Below, one piece after another: positions 25,937-59,143 of a stretch of DNA of 64,000 nt (positions within the stretch are counted from its first letter, which is position 1; each line of letters opens with the position of its first letter). This DNA comes from Sphyrna mokarran (lineage: Eukaryota): the NCBI GenBank assembly GCA_024679065.1, contig JAGIQG010000015.1, positions 33,976,001 through 34,040,000 on the forward strand. Reading direction: 5' to 3'. A model generated the notes under the pieces. It did no database searches. It was not told the DNA's origin and worked only from the letters and a program-made list of their open reading frames with translations. A program made the position numbers and the translations under genes.

Positions 25937-26224
<288 letters not shown>

Positions 26225-27334
26225 TTACAGAGATAAATATGATTACCTGAAAGACCAAACATTGATATAAGTGTGCAATCCAAATTATTTTTAACCCTTA
26301 TAAGGATTACTCACTTTCAGGCACAAACCATATTGACAGGGAGGAAAAATAATCCAATGAACAATTAGGTACTTCACTAACTACAAGCGCACCTGTTGTT
26401 GGCAACTAAATAAACAAGCTATATTGGTTCTATAATCATTGGGTAAACTTCATACCATAGTGTATAAACAAACATATGATGCCTTCATTCATGTCCATAA
26501 ACATAGAAATAGAAGCAAGACTAGGCCATTCGGCCCTTCAAGCCTGCGCCGCTACTCATTTTGATATGGCCGATCATGAAATTCAATACCCTGATGCCTT
26601 CACCAACATCCCCCCAACCTCTTCCCCTATCCCCTGTCAGTATCTTAAGCTCTTTGGCCCTAAGAGCTATTTGTTCAAAAATCTGTCACCCCAAAAAATG
26701 TGCTGATTGTTCTTTTAATATACACAAATTAAAGTAGTTGACACAACTTATGTCACAAATCTCCATAAAGGCTTCACAAGAGCTCAAAGAGCCTAGGCAG
26801 AAAGTGGAAAGAACATAGCAAGTGGGGAGGTCAAAGCGTTAGGGTTAGTTGAGATGTTCAAAGAAAGAACTAAAGCAACTTTGCAGAAGCAGACTGAGTG
26901 TAGGGATAATTTGTCCAAAGGACTTGCCGCTAGATAAGGAAGATTAGGCCAAAATCAGAGTGCATAAGAGCTGAGAAATAAGACTGTAGAATATGTAGGC
27001 CCTCTAGTATTGAAAGAATATCAAAAACAATCGAAAAAGTCACAGTTTGAATGTTAAATTTGGTGACGAATCATACTTCTGAAGAGTGATTTAAGAAATT
27101 AGGATTTTTGTCACCAAACCTGAAAAGATTAAATATGACCATTACAGAACTTGTATCAATCTAATACTTGGTGCAGCTGCAATATTGAAGAATCAAAATC
27201 AGAACTGCCAATTACTCATTCAGTTGAGAGTCGTGTTGCATTATTCCTGGCGCATCTTGATAGGGGTGTTCAAGGTAACGAGGAACATTTATAAATGGTC
27301 TTTTATGTAGAAAAATGTTTCAAAATGCTTCACA

Positions 27335-27630
27335 GAAAACAAAGAAAATTACAGTACAGGCCCTTCAGCCTCCAAGCCTGCACCAATCATGCTGCTCATC
27401 TTAAACAAAACACTCTACCTTTTCGAAGACCATAACTCTCTACTTCCATCCTATCAATGAATTTGTCAAGATACCGTTAAAGGTCACAATTGTATCTGCT
27501 TCCACCAACTCCCTCAGCAGTCAGTTCCTGATCCCTATTACCCTCTGTAAAAAAACTTGCCTCATACAATCTTGCCCCTTAAACCTATGCCCCCTTGTAA
27601 TTGACTTTTCCACCATGGCAAAAAGCTTCA
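27335..27630 (-). mobile_element. CR1 3' fragment
   Basis: reverse CR1 tail 'aaagaaaattacagtacaggcccttcagcc' and 'tctgcttccaccaactccc'. Confidence 0.6.
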
Positions 27631-30027
27631 CATTTTTGTTTCGGATCTTGGATCATTTTGGATCAGAGCCATGAAGAAAACAGACACCGACAAAAGGAGG
27701 AATTATAAGGATGAACAAAATCTTGTTCAAGGAAGTAAATTTGAAGTCTTGATGGAGAAGCAACAGGCGCAAGAGTTTCAGGAGGAAATTCTTGTCGGTA
27801 GCAAAAAGCAGCCGATTACATTATTGTGAATGCTAAGGCAAAGGGTGGGAGACAGGTGTGAGATAGAAGATTGGCATTAGAGGAAAGGAGAATTTTAAAT
27901 CCAAGACATTAGAGAACTGGTATCAATTCAAGTCAGACAGGAGATGGTGATAGGCAAGCAGACTCTGGCAGCACAGATTTTGAGTTGGAGGTTATGGAGG
28001 GTAAAGGATGGAAGTGGAATGTTGGAGTAAATAGATCTGAGATAATGAAAGTCATTACAAAAAGTGAAGAAAATTTAAATTATGATTTTAAAATAAGAAT
28101 GTTCAGTAATTTTTATCTAAAAGTACATAACTGGAATGTCTGAAACAATGTACTGAAAGATTTGCACCATGAATATTGCTGTGGTAATTACAGATGCAAT
28201 GTACTCCAAAAACAAATCCTTCCTCTCTATCTATGTGCAAGGGGTTAAAATGATAAAGGTCTGAATTCTGGGGTAGGAATGAGAGCTAAATTGGCAGCAT
28301 TTGCTACCATTATTCCTGACAGTAACTTTGGAGTATGCAGTTAAACACAGAAATGCAGTAAATACAGAAATGTTTAGTCTGTGATTCTATACTTCCCAAT
28401 GGGGTCACTGTAGGGAAGCATCTTTCCCCACCCCCCCAAGTCTGCAATCAACTGAGAGTCAATGAACTAACAAAAACTTCCCCTTTTACACAATTAATCA
28501 CAGTTAAAACCCTTGAACAAGTTACGTCTAGTTGATTGAATGCTATAGTAAATTCATAATTATTGTTGAACAGTTTCACTGACCCAGAAAACCTAATTTT
28601 ATAATCGTGAAATATCAAGTGTTATTTTTGGATTGTAGTGAAGAAATTTGACATTTTAATTGCTTATGGCATGTTAGTTTCTATCTTAATCCTAGGTGCA
28701 CGGACAAATCATTCATTTTGATTGCTATACAAAATAGTGCATTTTACTTCCTATTTTGCAGTCTATGGAAATTCTTCAGTGCAACTGGCTGCTTACCCCG
28801 CTTGCTGACATCGCTGTTGCTGGGCACCTGGAGACCCCCTTTGACTTGATGCCAGGTTCAAACTGACATCAAGAAAAGGGAAATCCACACCAAAAAGGTC
28901 ACCATTTCTCTGGGTAGTTTTCTTTGAGTCAGTAATGAGTATCTTCACTTCATTGCTGGTCACAAGATCTAGGTCAATTTTTTCTAAATTTATTCTTGGG
29001 ATGCTGGCATCGCTGGCTAGACCAGCATTTTTGCCCATTCCTAACTGTCATTGAGAAGGTGGTGGTGAGCTGCCTTCTTGAACCGTTGCCATCCATGTGG
29101 TGCAGGTACGCCACAGTACTGAATCTATTTCATAAAACATGAGACTCAACCAGTTTAAAATAAAGATCACTTCAGATCAATGGCATAACCTGATTAATAT
29201 GCATAACCTCACTGATTTAACAATTCTTTGTTTGTTGAGTCCACTATGAATTCCAAATACAATTTAAAAAAATTTTTTTTGGAGTTCATAATCAGATGTC
29301 TTCTGAAATTACCTCAACACATTTGTAGGGTGATTTCACCAATCTCCTTATCTGCATTGCAAGCTGGTGTAACTGCTCATTTTTAATTCTTAATAACATT
29401 TGTGGAGAAATGTAGAACTCATCTCCTGTCAAGAATCTGAGCAGGTATTATGTTACTTACACACAGGTCTATTTACAGCAGCTCCTGCCTGTATGATTCA
29501 AAGCAAGTGACAGCTGGTTGTACAGCTGCCCCATATATGTACAGGAGGAACACAGCTGCTTGCCAGCCAGAATTCCAGGAGCCACACTCATCAACTCTTT
29601 TAAGAGTAATCAGATTGTATTTTACTGTTCAGAAGGGACAGCCTGGACCCCAAAATTCCTGGATTAATTTATCAGCAAGACTGAAAATTTAGAAAAGACG
29701 CAACTTCCAAATAAGATGCTTTTAACTCACCACAAGTTAAGTAGGAATAACCTGATTCCTCCCCCCTCTCTTCAGGTGCTTGTAATAAAACGCACTGCAA
29801 GTCAGTATTGCAAGGTCCACAGCTGTCACTTCACATCCCCACACTAGAGTTCCCGATCTGTATCACACTAACTGCCCTTTTACAGGCAGGAACAGCCAGC
29901 AAGTCGTACTGCAGTGGTCCAACCAGTGTACTAGCCAGAGTAAGTTGTGCCCACAACACTGCTACTGGCTACTCCACAAGAGTGTGAAGCAAGTACAGAA
30001 GTTTAGTGTCTAAACAGCAATACATAT

Positions 30028-30312
30028 TCGCTAAGAACAAGTGTAGTATTTGGTTTTACACTTGATATAAGTCAATGAGATTACACTGAGGCTTCTTTTG
30101 AAGTAATTCTTTTAAAAACGCCATCCAGGCCTTTTGGGTAAGATGAAGTTCAGATCAAGCACTGCAGGGAGCGTAATGCCGGCTTCTATCGGCTTGGGTC
30201 TTCTTGATTGAGCCCAAGACAAGAAGAATGGGGTTCATCTTGTTAGCTTGGACCTCTTGTAGAGACTTTGATTAGATCAATTTGGCTTTTAATTGAATAT
30301 GACAAAAAAAAT
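30028..30312 (+). mobile_element. U2 snRNA-derived multimeric retroposed element (pseudogene or SINE-like)
   Basis: 30030-30058 gctaagaacaagtgtagtatttggtttta and 30128-30149 ggccttttgggtaagatgaagt match the U2 5' region; ends in A8. Confidence 0.6.
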
Positions 30313-30764
30313 CTAAGCAGCATTAAAACATTCCCTATCCACACAACAGCAAACATGCTGAAAAGAGTCGGGGGTGGGTGCTTGCTTAAATCTGGTTTCT
30401 GCAATGATAGTCATTTGTAGAAACTGCCTCAAATAATTAATGGTTGAGCCGAAGGGCCTGTTTCCACACTCTCTATCTCTATGTAAATCTCTATGACTCT
30501 TATACAGTAAAGGTCTCAAACTGCAGTTTTAAAAATAAACATCAGCTTCGTTTTCAATTATAAGCAGCAGCCTGGTCCTTGGTCCTTGTGAGGAAGGTTG
30601 GGGGGGTGATCAGAACTGCAGATAAGCAGTCCACTGGTCTACTGCAGGGCTTCCCTAGGGTGCTGTGAGTAATGGGCACCTACAATCACTCCATGATTTA
30701 GTTTGATAAGTTTTCTTTGGTTTAGTTCTAACTGAACTGCACTTTCCCATTTCTTTCTGCCTCC

Positions 30765-31082
30765 TGGGTGGCACGGTGGTTAGCACTGCTGCCTCACAGC
30801 ACGAGGGACCCAGGTTCGATTCCCGGTTTGGATCACTGTCTGTGTGGAGTTTGCACATTCTCCCCATGTTGGAGTGGGTTTCCTCTGGGTGTTTCGGTTT
30901 CTTCCCACAGTCCAAAAGATGTGCTGGTTAGGTGCACTAGCCATGCTAACTTCTCCCTCAGTGTATCCAAACTGGCGCCGGAGTGACTAGGGAATTTTCA
31001 CAGTAACTTCATTACAATGTTAACGTAAGACTACATGTGACATCAATAAAAGAAATAGAGAAAAATAAATAAAATAAAATAA
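30765..31082 (+). mobile_element. full-length V-SINE with Rex1-like tail
   Basis: ggcacggtggttagcactgctgcctcacagc, ggttcgattccc, V-domain, ttttcacagta...gtgacatcaataaa, A-rich end. Confidence 0.9.
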
Positions 31083-31097
31083 TGGAGCACGGCAGAT

Positions 31098-31226
31098 TTA
31101 TTCTGATGAAAGGTCATAGATCTAAAACTTTAACCCTGTTTCTTTCTTCACAGATACCCGTCTGATCCAATGGGAACTCTTAGCATTTTCTGTCTTTATT
31201 TCAGATTTCCAACATCTGCAGTACAA
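31098..31226 (+). mobile_element. Penelope-like terminal repeat fragment with degenerate hammerhead core
   Basis: ctgatga-a-aggtc(ata)gatct-aaaac then 'cacagat...agcattttctg...tcagatttccaacatctgcag'; related copy at 40938-41068. Confidence 0.55.
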
Positions 31227-31269
31227 AAAATCTCCATTTATTTCATTGTGGCTTCTCTGTTGATGACAC

Positions 31270-32280
31270 TGGGCGCGGTCTTGAGCCTTTTCTCTCTGAG
31301 GCGAGATTGTGGACGAGCCTTAAAACCTGGCAACATCCGGAAATTGGAAATCTTGCTGGTGAGACTCAAGATTTATGATTTTCCCCTTCCCTCGCCGGTG
31401 AGGTAAACAGGTGAGAGCCCAATTTCAATAAATTTAACTATGATTATACACTCCCCTCACTAAAAATTTCTCAACAGGTTTGACTATCTCTGGGGGTGCA
31501 AAGGTGAGCATAGATCCCAGAGTAGAGGGATATGGCCAGGCAGTGCTCTGGCAATGCCATTCTGTGCAGCAGTACCAGGGATGGGCCCAAGGGGGAGCCC
31601 ATGTACTTGTGGTGGTGGTGGGGTGGAGTGGGCACCGAGGGGAGGGGAATGTGAATGCCAGTGTTATTGGGGGAGGGGATATGATGATTGGATGACTGTT
31701 AGGGATGGGGAGGAAATGCCAGTGATAATGATGTGGAGGGAGTCATGTCTCTGACGATGGAGGAATGCGGGTGGGTGTACAAATAATGATTGTGAGGAGG
31801 AGAAGATGTAAGTGATGAGGGGGGGGGTCGTGCAGGGGGATGATGAGGATACAGGTGATGATCGTTTGTGGAGGGAGGGGGGTGGGGGGGGGGGGGGAGA
31901 AGAGCAGTAAATTTTGGGTGGGATTTTCCAGCTGCGCATGCCACAAGACCAGCAATTCCACCCAAGGTCAACCTTATATGGTCCACCAAATTTCCCGACC
32001 TGTCCACTACAATTCCCATGGTGGGCAAGACCGGAAAATCTTGCTGTGTGTGTTCTGAACAGGGCACCCTTTCAAGACGACGCCCCAATCTCAGTGGAAC
32101 CTGTTCCCGGCTCTAAGGGTCTGCCTCACCAGAGTGACGGTGTGAACTGTAGCCAAGCTTCTTTTCCCAGATGATAATGCTCAAAAATCTGGAGAGAAAA
32201 CTGCTCAGTGAAGCTGGAGAACTTACACCAGTTTTCCCACCAGAACTAACACTTTGCCAAATTCTGGTAAGATCACCTCA
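31270..32280. repeat. non-autonomous element with purine-rich interior and imperfect terminal inverted repeats
   Basis: starts gggcgcggtctt, ends ggtaagatcacc; G-rich low-complexity middle; similar design at 46750-47635. Confidence 0.4.
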
Positions 32281-32519
32281 TTGTGTCAGTTTTCAGAATC
32301 AATTCAAGAGGCACATTCTTCTCTGCAAACTCCACTTTTAAGTAATTAGCAGTCTATAATATGGTGTGGATTAGAACCAAAAAAAAACATATTCAGGGTT
32401 GAAATGAAGACACTTGATGTCAGCTGTGCCATCAGATGTACTTATTGGAGAGTGAGTTGACCCAAACTGTTATCATACACCAGTGGCCAGAGTTTTTCAT
32501 TATTATTTCAAGGGATTCA

Positions 32520-34350
32520 AGTGTCCTGGGTCAACATTTGTTACTTACCTCTACTCGCCCATGGAGGTAGTTAATGGTGGTCAACAGGATTTATGAACCA
32601 CTGCAACGCATCTGTTGCTACTAGGAAAGAAGTTCCAGGGTTTTGACCCTACTGGCAGTCAAAGAACATCAGTATAGTTCCAAGACAGGATATTGTATGG
32701 CATGGAGGGGAACTTGCAGGTGCCAATGTTCCCACTCAGCTGCTGCCCTTGCTCTTCTAGGTGGTGGAGGTCATGTGTTCAGAAAGTGCTAACTAAGCAG
32801 CCTTGGTAAATTGCTGCAGTGCATTTTTTTAAATGTTACACAGTGCTGCCAGTGTGAATCGTAGAAACCTGCAGTGCAGGAGGAGGCCATTCGGCCCATC
32901 GAGTCTGCACCGACCACAATCTCTCTCCAGACCCTACCCCCATATCCCTACATATTTTACCAGCAAACTTACACATCGCATGACACTAGGGGGTAATTTT
33001 TAGCATGGCCAATCAACATAACCAGCACATCTTTGGACTTTGTGGGAGGAAACCGAAGTACCCAGAGGAAACCCACGCAGACACGAGGAGAATGTGCAAA
33101 CTCCACACAGCCAGTGACCTAAGCCGGGAATCGAACCCAGGGCCCTGGAGCTGTGAAGCAGTAGTGCTAACCATTGTGCTACCATGCCAGTTGTGAATGG
33201 AATGCCAAATAAGCAGGTTACGTTGTCCTGAATGGTGTCCAAATTCTTGAGTGTTGCTGGAGCTACATTCATTCAGGCCAGTGGAGAGCATTCCATCGCA
33301 CTCTTGACTTCAGAATCCTACAGAGTAGAAGAGGCCCTTCAGCGCATTGAATCTGCACTGACACAGACCTGCCCATCTAATCACATTTGCCAGCACTTGG
33401 CCCATAGCATTTTGTAGATGGTGGACAGGCCTTAGGGAGCAAGTGATGAATTATTCACTGCAAAATTCTTAGCATCTGAGAACACAGATATTACTGCTTC
33501 AAAATAAGGAGAAGTCAGTTAGAACAGAGTTGAGGAGGAATTACTTTTCTGAGGGTAGTGAATCTCTGGAATTCTCTGCCCATTGAAGCAGTGGAGGCTA
33601 CCTCGTTGAATATGTTTTAAGTCACAGGGAGATAGATTTCTGATCAATAAGAGAATTAAGGATTATGGGGAGCAGGCGGGTAAGTGGAACTGAACTACTA
33701 TCAGATCAGCCATGATCTTATTGAATGGTGGGGCAGGCTCGAGAGGCTACTCCTGCTCCTATTTCTTATGTTCTTATCTAACCTGCTCTTTTAGCTATGG
33801 TATTTATACGGCTGGTCCAGTTCAGTTTCTGATCAATGGTAACCCCCAGGATGTTGATAGTAGGGGATTTAACAATGGTAATATAATTGAATGTCAAGAG
33901 GTGATAGTTAGACTCTCTCTTGTTGGAGATGACCAGTACCTGGGACTTGTGTAGCACAAATGTTAACTGCTACTTATTAGTCCAAACCTGAATGTTGTTC
34001 AGATCTTACTACATGTAGATACTGACTGTTTCAGTATCTGAGGAGTTGTAAATGGCATCAAACACTGTGTAAGTCATCAACAAACATCCCCTCTGACCTT
34101 AGGATGGAGGATAGGTCATTGATGAAGCAGCTGGAGATGGTTAGGGCTAAAGCCTACCCTGAGGAACTCCTGCAATGTTGTCCTGAGGCTGAGAAGTCTG
34201 ACCTCCCACAACCACAGCCACCCCCCTTTGAGCCAGGTGTGACTCCAACAAGTGAGTTTTCCCCGTTTCCCACCAACTTCAATTCTGCTAGGGGTCCTAA
34301 TTGCCACTCAGACAATCTCTGCCTTGATGACAAGGGCAAGTGCGCTCAAC
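32520..34350 (-). mobile_element. CR1-Zenon-like LINE fragment with nested HE1 SINE (32860-33188) and CR1 piece (33520-33778, +)
   Basis: APATLKNLDTIQD and 'ctcaggacaacattgcaggagttcctcagggtag' (GVPQG) remnants. Confidence 0.7.
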
Positions 34351-34866
34351 TCATTTCTACTAATTGTCAATTATTATTGTTGTTCCTGTGTCATGGAATG
34401 ACATGCCCTTTAACATTATTATTACAGGTTACGTTGAGCCCTGCTGTGTTGTTGCAATGTTCCGTGCACTGATTTTCTGAAACCTGCTCCAACAGCACAT
34501 TCATTCGTTGATTTTACAAAGCTGTTGGTTCTTTGAGTACCAAGTTCAGCAATGCAGCTACCAGAGGGTGAGCGAGAAACTGATCAGTTGTATTTCCATA
34601 TGTAAAAGTGCTGCAATAAGAGCATGGGGACAGTTATTCACTTGGCCCTCGGCCAGATTATTGTACGAAACAAAAATCCTCATTAAAAAAAAAAATAAAG
34701 CAACTAGTCAGTCAAGTCGTCATAATCAAATTTCACCATCATGTGCTTCGCCCTGCTAACTTCAATATCGAAAGATCACAAGGTTTTTCCATCAACAGAA
34801 CCAGCAGCTCAGCTTTGCAAGTCACCCCTTTCTCTGTGGTTCATTCCATCTAAGCACCTTTGAGGC

Positions 34867-34902
34867 TATATATATATATACACACACACATACATATATA
34901 TT
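34867..34902. repeat. (TA)n(CA)n microsatellite
   Basis: directly visible. Confidence 0.9.
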
Positions 34903-36974
34903 AAACCTTAAGAGACCTTTTGGTCTCTTTATTTTCCGGCAATAAAAGGTCATATTTGACTGAGCAGAGCAACCCAGTCCTCACCTGACACCCACGCAGA
35001 TACACTTCCAGCAGGGATTGCTGGATAGTGAGCAGTAGTGGCAATCTTCCTAATAGAAGCAACTGCCATCAATGCAGCAGCCCTCTGCTAGCTCACAAGC
35101 CTGCAATGGATCTTTACGGGCAAACGCATTAGGGAAGGGGGGAGGTGAAAGTAGTTTGGTGGGGGGGCGGTAGTCGGTGCTCTAGAAGGATTCCTGACTC
35201 TATAGGTTTTACACATTTCATGGAGGTACCATCAATAAAAGTAACTTCAATTAATCACAGGCTGCTGTTAAATAACTCAGCTGCAAAAATAAAGGAAGTC
35301 AGATGGTATCCGCAGAATGTCCACACCACATCCTCATTTGTGAATATTACGCTGAAACAATGAAAAAAAGCCAAAGTCTGTTAAAATGGGTAGCACTAGA
35401 ATATCACAAGGACAATGCATGACAGCTGCTTAACACAATTTACAAGAGAAACCAAGGCAGTTATAAACATTGAAGCCTTTGATAACCAGGAGCTCACATT
35501 TCCAAGATGCTACCATCCCCTGAACCAAATTCCATCATGCAGCTAAAAACAACTATACAACAACTGTGTAAACAGAGGCAACTATTTTACATTCCAGTGC
35601 CTAAGTTAAAAGATGACATTAAGGCAACAGGAGCATCTACTTTTTTTCACTGAAGGAACATCATTCCTAGGTTAGCAATCCTTTAGTGTGCAGTCTTGAA
35701 TTGTAAATCATCACCTCAACACAATCTTCCAAACTTGAATGAAGAATCAAGCTGTACTTATTTAAACTTTCTTAGCTTCAAACATCACAAGCTCTTTATT
35801 TATGTTGTTCCTTTGCCCATGTTCTGCTTTTATTAATGGCATTATTTACAATCTATAAAACAATAGTCCACATATAAAACTCTATTTGGACTTTTAGAAG
35901 GTTGAAAGGAATGTTCAGTTTCATTACCTGTACAATCACAATTCCTATTAATCATTTCCAATTTCTTTAGTCGATTTCAGAACACGGAGATAGAATATAC
36001 CTGCAGCTGTGGTCTTGAGTCACACATTTCTAATAATGTAGTATTTAAAATTGTGCCTCATTATTGATAATACTTACTACCAATTCCTTCATTATGCAGC
36101 TGTGCAGAATATTGCTGAACTATTTATCTGGGTTGCAAAAAAAGCTGATAATCTATTAGCCAACACTTCTTACTAAGTCCAGGAACTAGCATTTGAACTG
36201 CAACTGAAAGTGGTATTATTAAAGTTTACAGTCTCACTTCACATGGATTTACAGAAATTGAGGACATGTTGGAAGGGTGATGGATCTCAACCATGCATGC
36301 ATACGTACGTACAATTAGATCTCCTATGATTATTAAGTAATGTTTCAATACTTTTAGTTTGGACTATATATTGATTTGTTGTTTTAACAAGAGTGCACAA
36401 AAAGACAAAGTGCAGGAAGACATTTGTCCAAAATGAACCAAAGCATTTTTAAATGATTTGTATAAAATATTATTGTGCAGCAAGCTCCTCACAGACCTAC
36501 TGTTTGAAACAACTGTTCAAAACCTAAGAATTTTCAAAGCAAGCTGAGAGACTGATGAGAAGATAGTGAGTTAAGTGCGGTGAAATTTAAGAAAAAGATA
36601 ATCACTTAAGGTTTCAGAGTTATTGAAGTGATACTTCTGTGTTACAGACATGCAAATGAACTAAACCAATGCTTCACAGTGTGGTATTTTCAAAAGGAAC
36701 CAAGTGTCTAGCAACAAAATCTTGTGGTTACAGAGGAGGAAGCATGAAAAATTAAGAAATATTTTTAAACTAACAAGGTAACAAGCTGCCATTCACAAAA
36801 ACAGTTCATGATTAACCAGTACTTCTTTCAAAGTAAATCCTGATTTTTCAGTTTGGAGCTGTAACTTAGTCCATTTACCAATTAATTTAATTTAACACAT
36901 TATTTACAAAGGAATCTTTAAACTGTCTTAGGTGCCTTCGCTCAAAATTTACCCCAAAGCTAGCTAGTGCCGTG

Positions 36975-37320
36975 CTAAAGGAAAGGATTTGCAATTACAG
37001 AGCATATTTCATAGCCAGTGGACATCCCAAAGCATTTTCCAGCCAATGAGGTATTTTTGAAAGTTAGTAACTGTTGGAAAATGCACTTGCCAATTTAGCA
37101 CAAAGTTCTGCCAACAGCCATGACGTATATGACAGCTTTAAAAAGAATTGGTTCAGAGATAAGTACTAGACAAAACATTGGGAATATTCCTGTTCAAATA
37201 TTGTCATAGAATCTTTCATCTCTACCCAAGAGAGTAGACAGGCCTCGGTCTAATGTCTCTTCTGAAGGATAGCGTTCCTGACACTGCAGCATTCCTTACC
37301 TGCTGTACTGAAACGAGTCT
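36975..37320 (-). mobile_element. ancient DeuSINE (SacSINE1/AmnSINE1-like)
   Basis: 'ggacatcccaaagcattttccagccaatgaggtatttttgaa' Deu-type 3' part; related copies at 45890-46120 (+), 47940-48215 (+), 61735-61960 (-). Confidence 0.6.
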
Positions 37321-37636
37321 GAATAGGAAGCTTTTCCAGTAACTTTAGATCCCCAGGACAAAATGTCCATCCAGACAACAGCACAAATCAGCTCTGAACT
37401 GACACCTGCACTCAAACTGAGGATGGATCACGCATCAGAATGCTGAGAGACTGAATTAATTGTTGAGATTCAGCCGAAACAGAGCAACAGGTTGTATTTT
37501 ATCTCACCAGGCAACACTTAGTGCTAAAAGTGGAAAGTAAACGTGATAAGCATCGTTGTGGTGATTGTTCGACAAACTGGTTGCAAGAGACCCAGAGACA
37601 GGTTACAAACGTTTATCTGAGATTTTAACATGTAAA

Positions 37637-37738
37637 GAGAGCACAATCACAGGGAGATCCCTGATACAGCACTCTCCCCTAATACACCATTCCACAAGGA
37701 GAGCATAATCACAGAGAGACCTCTGATACAGCACTCCA
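37637..37738. repeat. two-copy direct repeat, about 38 bp unit, 62 bp period
   Basis: gagagcacaatcacagggagatccctgatacagcactc / gagagcataatcacagagagacctctgatacagcactc. Confidence 0.85.
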
Positions 37739-38085
37739 CTAAGTCCCAAATTGCCACTATATTTATACACTGTTAATCACATACATTGTTTAATTGCCAA
37801 TCTGGTCTACAGAAGTTTATTATTAAACCCAAAGCAGGATTATCACCTCATAGCTAGAGACTTTCCTAGTCCTATTTTCCCAGAGATCACATTTAATCTG
37901 CTCTGACTCAATATCTGACCTTCGATCAATAAACAACCAAGGCCTTACTGGAGAGACCCTGCTGCGAGAGTCCTGATGATCTCAAATCCTTAGGGTGCTC
38001 AAGTTTCACTTCAATGCTAGTAGCATTCAACTAACATGTAGTCTTATTCTAAAAATCTATTAATTTCCCCAACAAGCGTGTTTCA

Positions 38086-38298
<213 letters not shown>

Positions 38299-59109: not shown

Positions 59110-59143
<34 letters not shown>
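59096..59143. repeat. (AC)n followed by C33 homopolymer
   Basis: directly visible. Confidence 0.9.

Follow-up and report, generated by a model that had tools for sequence, protein, structure and literature searches.

An intron of an AKT1-like gene in the shark Sphyrna mokarran contains a copy of a dispersed retroposon family that is built from pieces of U2 small nuclear RNA. The copy was found in a 64,000-nucleotide stretch of genomic DNA (the window), and the family to which it belongs, referred to here as family A, is a fixed unit of approximately 310 nt with an A tail, target-site duplications, thousands of copies and five subfamilies. Taken as a whole, the window copy is probably the dead remnant of an old U2-piece retroposon that was likely moved by a Keno-like Tx1 element and likely transcribed from U2 genes that it had invaded. 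A sequence-only reading of the same DNA had proposed either an snRNA-derived, SINE-like family or the by-product of a U2-targeting element. As alternatives these did not hold; it appears that the two apply together, i.e., a family that is also tied to a U2-cutting, Tx1-like LINE.

The copy in the AKT1 intron

The window copy (30027-30311; all of its parts are given on the plus strand) is decayed, with 82% identity to the family-A consensus, the mean of its sister copies being 86%. It is flanked at 30009-30022 and 30312-30325 by target-site duplications of 14 nt that share 12 of 14 letters. The host intron (26192-38169, minus strand) was placed by flanking exons, splice sites and gene identity. 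The gene is AKT1-like, its best solved relatives being RAC-alpha, and its exons and relatives bear out the earlier statement that the element lies antisense to AKT1.

Two U2 5'-end matches about 70 nt apart had been noticed from the letters, and both are significant against the genome's own U2 gene (L031): positions 30030-30058 match at 25/29 and positions 30128-30149 at 20/22, the gap between them is 70 nt, and each match beats 2,000 of 2,000 dinucleotide shuffles (p = 0.0005). The first belongs to a U2-derived head (30027-30058) that aligns with U2 nt 17-48 of the same gene (p = 0.0005), includes the branch-site-pairing motif and is 5'-truncated by 16 nt. Next to it lies an inverted copy of U2 nt 11-36 (30056-30082), recognised from the inverted repeat, from folds and from a pair table over 75 copies. 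The predicted pairing between head and inverted copy comprises 23 pairs in the consensus, of which nine remain in the window copy, and the plus-strand head region of the window copy folds no better than its shuffles (z 0.05). The linker that follows (30083-30123), defined by the consensus and its fold, consists of a short hairpin and a T/A-rich stretch; it has no similarity to U2 (p = 0.74) and is likely the old tail of a left unit.

The second U2 5' copy (nt 7-32; 30124-30149) opens a body that aligns with that of a related family, family B, described below. Within this body, module 1 (30171-30201) is derived from a diverged U2 nt 31-62, and module 2 (30236-30291), which ends at an Sm-site-like T run, from a diverged U2 nt 40-105. 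These assignments are made on the consensus (p = 0.007 and p = 0.002, respectively); taken from the window copy alone, neither module scores as U2-like (p 0.23 and 0.76). In module 2 the window copy lacks 11 nt near 30253, seen as an alignment gap, whereas the orthologous contig of sequencing run X7 has nine of these letters. The repeated 8-mer (30152-30159), the two modules (about 30183 and 30236) and the A8 end (30304-30311) of the sequence-only reading are indeed present in the letters. Tandem Repeats Finder reported nothing at the element.

An insertion at the same site was recovered from runs X7 and X10, which represent two other related organisms, and the orthologous contigs are approximately 5-6% different when flank and element are taken together. 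Run X3, which extends only 27 nt into the element, was left out of this count, and run X2, taken as RNA by guess only, gave no contig of the window copy.

A dispersed and old family

The window copy belongs to a real, dispersed retroposon family. Its non-U2 part is not single copy: searches of the 2.77-Gb genome returned 896 family-A candidates with the window copy as query and 1,691 with a better-kept copy, 40 candidates being scored each time and full-length matches being 68-85% identical to the query. Three family-A copies in 80 evenly spaced 10-kb samples (800 kb) correspond to approximately 10,400 copies genome-wide (95% range 2,100-30,400). The best copies, at 45 distinct loci, are 81-92% identical to a consensus of 311 nt, and 37 of the 45 start within U2 nt 1-25. 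Shared ends and target-site duplications, for which the sequence-only reading had proposed a search, were both found. The internal structure and the ends are the same in all 45 loci examined, an A tail is present in 75 of the 89 copies that reach the 3' end, and a duplication score of at least 8 was obtained in 16 of 71 copies, compared with 1.05% of shuffled pairings. A second family-A copy lies within 1.5 kb at 13/45 loci, and copies are often joined head to tail with hardly any spacer or none.

Rfam U2 (RF00004), which had been suggested as a check, did not recognise the window copy, giving no match at E ≤ 5 and none at the gathering level for the region or for the whole window. Among eight loci examined with the same model, three gave a match at E ≤ 0.15, the best being L004 (E 2.3e-6, 45.9 bits vs. 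a cut-off of 46).

Clustering of 75 copies gave four subfamilies, each 86-87% identical to its own consensus. A fifth is a well-supported clade whose copies are on average 92.5% and at best 97% identical, these values being based on 15 copies picked for perfect heads, and it looks younger. Identity to the consensus, together with the insertion shared by X7 and X10, indicates that the family is old and that the window copy is likely dead. Family-A insertions are also usable as markers for shark phylogeny. Two further arrangements were observed. One family-A copy is flanked by two U4 genes at distances of about 300 and 500 nt (L113/L115, G000:C882, 100.20 Mb), which may be chance. At L010:1002-1029 and at about position 2239 of the same locus, U2 nt 3-30 is fused with an unrelated repeat, in the opposite orientation to the family-A copies.

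Anatomy of the element

The family-A consensus opens with U2 nt 1-45 (44/45). In individual copies the U2 match is patchy beyond nt 35-39 (44 copies anchored), and the heads of the subfamily consensuses end at about nt 37-40. The inverted U2 nt 11-36, the T/A-rich linker and a body common to family B follow in this order. In all five subfamily consensuses the head is predicted to form one long hairpin, in which the bases that pair with the branch site are paired with a probability of 0.94-1.00, compared with 0.54 in U2. By folding onto its inverted copy, the head would hide the bases that pair with U6 and with the branch site. Selection on this hairpin was not detected: an excess of changes towards G.U pairs in the 3' arm is not significant (6/15 vs. 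1/8, p = 0.35).

The body of family A contains a duplicated U2 31-62 and ends after an Sm-site-like T run, and a stem-IIb-like hairpin occurs in every consensus, formed by differing letters. Family B (L087-L111, e.g., G000:C1:60037817-60038014) is a unit of approximately 225 nt with an A tail; its U2 sequence is nearly whole but diverged and contains internal duplications. It gave 2,278 search candidates, with two copies in the 800-kb sample, and is likely the ancestor of the family-A body. Each of the five subfamily consensuses of family A contains 3-5 internal runs of at least four T, which argues against transcription by RNA polymerase III; the same argument is made in PMC4494074.

Junctions in U2 and the neighbouring LINE

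Junctions were surveyed in all 48 Rfam U2 matches of the genome; this set is biased towards copies with most of U2 preserved and would therefore not show junctions further 3'. Eight of the 48 matches have an A tail directly upstream and no U2 5' end, and all eight start at U2 nt 38-46; upstream of these starts lies family A in four cases, a LINE in two and an unidentified tail in two. Six other U2 copies start at nt 26-41 without an A tail; 5 nt upstream of one full-length copy there is an A run. The 3' junctions between LINE and U2 lie at nt 38 (L318), at about nt 41 (L352) and at nt 46 (L136). A pattern search for U2 junctions gave seven distinct loci, with family A upstream at five, family B at one and neither at one; this search forces the junction to lie near nt 35-43, and its positions are therefore not counted as evidence for site choice.

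The family-A copies linked to U2 do not form one clade (at least three changes are forced), and therefore the U2 site was hit repeatedly. A lean of target sites towards the U2 site, judged from the bases after the tail, is weak (7/71 vs. 3.3%, p = 0.01), and 26 of the 30 copies in the tree set are without the U2 3' half. A single read-through source for the U2-linked copies was considered and rejected, as these are not a clade and the U2 3' flank is no proof of read-through, being carried by many plain U2 retrocopies as well. Many U2 retrocopies (L304-L335) have 29-42 nt of the gene's 3' flank, which suggests copying of unprocessed pre-U2.

Close to a U2 gene array lies a broken U2 (nt 46-191) with a LINE tail joined to it. 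This LINE gave 1,814 search candidates and has shark relatives. Its pieces match the reverse transcriptase domain PF00078 (RVT_1) above the cut-off (30.5 bits) and zf-RVT below it, and no endonuclease domain was detected on nine decayed pieces. Its domain layout and a zinc-knuckle-like ORF1 piece suggest that it is Tx1-like. Family A abuts this LINE above chance: a family-A copy lies within 17 nt, on the same strand, at 6 of the 24 LINE loci (chance approximately 4e-11), and both are joined to U2 at nt 38-46. A U2 3' half after the LINE was found at 0 of the 24 loci other than the query. The 800-kb sample, which was unselected, contained one LINE 3' piece only; it was situated about 270 nt upstream of a family-B copy, at the place where the LINE tail would end. 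The sequence-only reading had suggested a search for a LINE with the same tail as the element; none was found, and the best match between the 3' ends of family A and the neighbour LINE is 9 nt (E 0.91). From the arrangement of these copies, it is nevertheless likely that family A was mobilised by a Tx1-like partner LINE, whose endonuclease and reverse transcriptase would have moved the unit, using the A tail for priming and preferring the U2 site only weakly.

Other loci also combine U2 and LINE pieces. Four near-identical U2 genes with a spacing of approximately 8 kb (L130-L133, G000:C949, 17.32-17.35 Mb) have LINE 3' pieces in their spacers. At L180, L318/L345 and L352, an A tail (a LINE tail in two of them) is joined to the U2 3' half, which is followed about 350-375 nt further on by the 5' part of U2 (nt 1-45 to 1-57) and then by LINE pieces. 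These layouts likely remain from an old U2 array of short period into which the LINE had inserted.

Source copies in U2 genes and transcription

At one locus, L136, a whole family-A copy sits inside a U2 gene, between the promoter region with U2 nt 1-37 (nt 4-37 matching at 100%) on one side and U2 nt 40-191 with the 3' flank on the other; the order is upstream flank, U2 head, body, A tail, U2 3' part and 3' flank. The upstream flank matches that of intact U2 genes, and the promoter region has a deletion of approximately 11 nt. The branch of this copy (0.15) is no shorter than those of its sisters, so that it does not stand out as a master copy, and the copy is not basal in the tree. A search with promoter and U2 head, in which 40 of 266 candidates were scored, gave eight loci with a promoter flank, six of them intact and two broken at nt 37-39. 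At L342, a promoter-bearing U2 breaks off after nt 39; a few bases that resemble the fifth subfamily come next, and after these a LINE piece. No U2 3' half was found within approximately 19 kb downstream. Perfect U2 5' matches without a promoter are family-A heads in 20 of 22 cases. L353, one of the 22 loci checked, carries a 5' extension of 13 nt that matches the upstream flank of the L342 U2 gene at 12/13.

L136, L342 and L353 fit U2-resident source copies, whose inner A tail would have served the LINE enzyme as its priming site. On balance, a U2-promoter source seems plausible for at least some subfamilies. RNA polymerase II, starting from the U2 promoter, would have transcribed copies resident in U2 genes, and this might also renew their heads. 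More tentatively, there might be a lineage that lives off U2 genes by landing at nt 38/39, taking the promoter and the U2 5' end as its head and, through the fold-back, stopping this head from pairing with U6 and the branch site; such a lineage would mean that SINEU was born a second time and separately, possibly including a U4 piece. If this is true, a lineage resident in U2 genes would explain in concrete terms how SINEs with snRNA heads come to be transcribed.

Alternative explanations

The partner might be a different LINE (of L1, RTE or CR1/L2 type, or Utopia), in which case the Tx1-like LINE would adjoin the element only through a shared preference for open sites. Target-site duplications of 10-18 nt fit an enzyme of the L1/Tx1 type, all six adjacent pairs are in the same orientation at such short distances, and the lone LINE 3' piece in the 800-kb sample lies upstream of a family-B copy; against this background another partner appears improbable, although the element and the Tx1-like LINE have no 3' tail in common, the clade of the LINE is derived from its domain layout, and the same U2 junction is used by Utopia (PMC4640811). 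A second alternative covers the transcription step only and is not exclusive of the others. It keeps the family and its Tx1 partner and dispenses with U2-resident sources: copies would be transcribed from host-gene or other upstream promoters, their heads would be renewed by template switching onto free U2 snRNA, and the copies in U2 genes would be dead-end insertions. Template switching has been argued for SINEU-2 (Kojima 2015, PMC4494074), and the frequent head-to-tail joins, the lack of U2 gene flank at 21 of the 22 perfect-head loci and the non-basal position of L136 are consistent with it. However, it does not predict that heads end at nt 37-40, where the LINE cuts, and both the breakage of two of the eight promoter-bearing U2 loci at that place and the U2 gene flank on L353 speak against it, so that we regard this route as rather unlikely and retain transcription from copies in U2 genes as the preferred reading.

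The stretch after the head might have come from U4 snRNA nt 20-47, which would make the element a U2-U4-U2 chimera and not a U2 fold-back. The corresponding part of the window copy is 30065-30092 (p = 0.058). For subfamily 1, the genome's U4 matches at 22/27 without gaps (shuffle p = 0.0015; 1 of 9,638 masked background windows), and in all four subfamilies tested U4 scores at least as high as the U2 reverse complement. Nonetheless, U4 was picked after looking, and the likeness is weaker in the other subfamilies (76, 88 and 346 of 9,638 windows, 76 applying to the subfamily of the window copy). Over 23 positions the U4-like bases form pairs with U2 11-36, and there U4 is itself matched at 8/9 by reversed U2; behind eight partial U4 copies, no U4-headed relatives were found. 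It appears that the U2 fold-back accounts for much of the resemblance, and a U4 origin is doubtful. Far less probable still is co-option of the window copy, whose antisense, U2-complementary bases would serve as a cryptic branch point or as a U2 decoy in the AKT1 pre-mRNA. The antisense orientation is real and the insertion has been kept in two related organisms, but the element is 3.8 kb from the intron acceptor, the branchpoint-like site falls within a predicted hairpin stem on either strand, the window copy is among the more decayed copies, and the divergence between orthologous contigs extends over flank and element together. The branchpoint-like sequence to which the sequence-only reading had drawn attention thus found no support, the copy that contains it being as decayed as its sisters, and the window copy is likely neutral in AKT1 and probably unimportant in itself. 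That the two U2 matches are due to chance or to independent truncated U2 pseudogenes would agree with the missing Rfam match of the window copy; this explanation is refuted by the genome copy counts and the 45-locus consensus and, given the shared structure and ends, the duplications and the subfamilies, retains practically no credit.

Relation to known snRNA-derived elements

SINEU-1/2/3 were found in crocodilians, with none reported elsewhere in the accessible text, and their transcription was left as an open question (Kojima 2015, PMC4494074). The shark family resembles them in its U2-derived head, its length of less than 500 nt, its A tail, added heads, partial duplications, internal T runs and tandem insertions. 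In both cases there is no LINE with the same tail and a Tx1 partner is proposed from shared sites, and family B, as a rearranged near-whole U2, is like SINEU-3 (PMC4494074). The features by which the SINEU kind is recognised, namely a U2 head, an A-tailed unit of less than 500 nt with shared structure, target-site duplications and internal oligo-T, were all found. The two groups differ in that the host is a shark, no U1 part was recognised, and an inverted copy of the head gives a long predicted hairpin. Moreover, the shark family targets U2 itself and not Mariner-N4, and it has copies in U2 genes, which the accessible part of PMC4494074 does not report. A Mariner-type target preference was not seen among the 45 loci, where near-flank sequence is common to only six pairs, three of them family B. 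The family is thus termed SINEU-like and kept apart from SINEU-1/2/3, with which it was compared through the U2 parts only; the shark family is likely of separate origin.

Two U2-specific retrotransposons, Keno, of the Tx1 clade, and Utopia, which has a restriction-like endonuclease, share a 3' junction at U2 nt 39, close to the junctions at nt 38-46 of the shark element and LINE, and weakened specificity has been reported for crocodilian Utopia (PMC4640811). Unlike these retrotransposons, the shark element codes for no protein and has no end in common with the LINE, and unlike Keno as described in PMC4640811, the shark LINE lies mostly outside U2.

R2 is autonomous and strictly site-specific, whereas the shark element is non-coding and most of its copies are dispersed. 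The two are alike in that both are promoter-less and proposed to share the transcript of the gene that they target, the 28S rRNA gene in the case of R2 (cited in PMC4494074). Retropseudogenes of snRNAs and snRNA-LINE chimeras (PMC4494074) are likewise retrocopied snRNA pieces with duplications, and plain U2 retrocopies are numerous in this genome; however, those are one-off events, whereas the shark element is a fixed unit with subfamilies.

No shark U2-derived SINE was found in the literature searched; Repbase, Dfam and subscription journals lie outside this search and may hold the family. The accessible parts of PMC7245038, PMC5381603, PMC4758252, PMC8010984 and PMC5786205, which refer to snRNA-derived SINEs by way of PMC4494074, name no shark case, and the term 'U2 snRNA' is absent from the accessible text of PMC5499810, which deals with shark SINEs. 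The shark family was previously unplaced and has a testable transcription route. With two abundant U2-derived families in a shark, the SINEU design likely arose again, and copies in promoter-bearing U2 genes make the question of SINEU transcription open to experiment.

Some other features of the window may be mentioned. Positions 30443-30483 contain the end of a short, high-copy repeat that is very deep in all four sequencing runs, and a perfect run of 33 C at 59111-59143 is either real or an assembly artefact. Approximately 450 nt downstream of the element, at 30761-31000, lies a copy of a tRNA-type, shark SINE-like repeat, which we take to be HE1-like.
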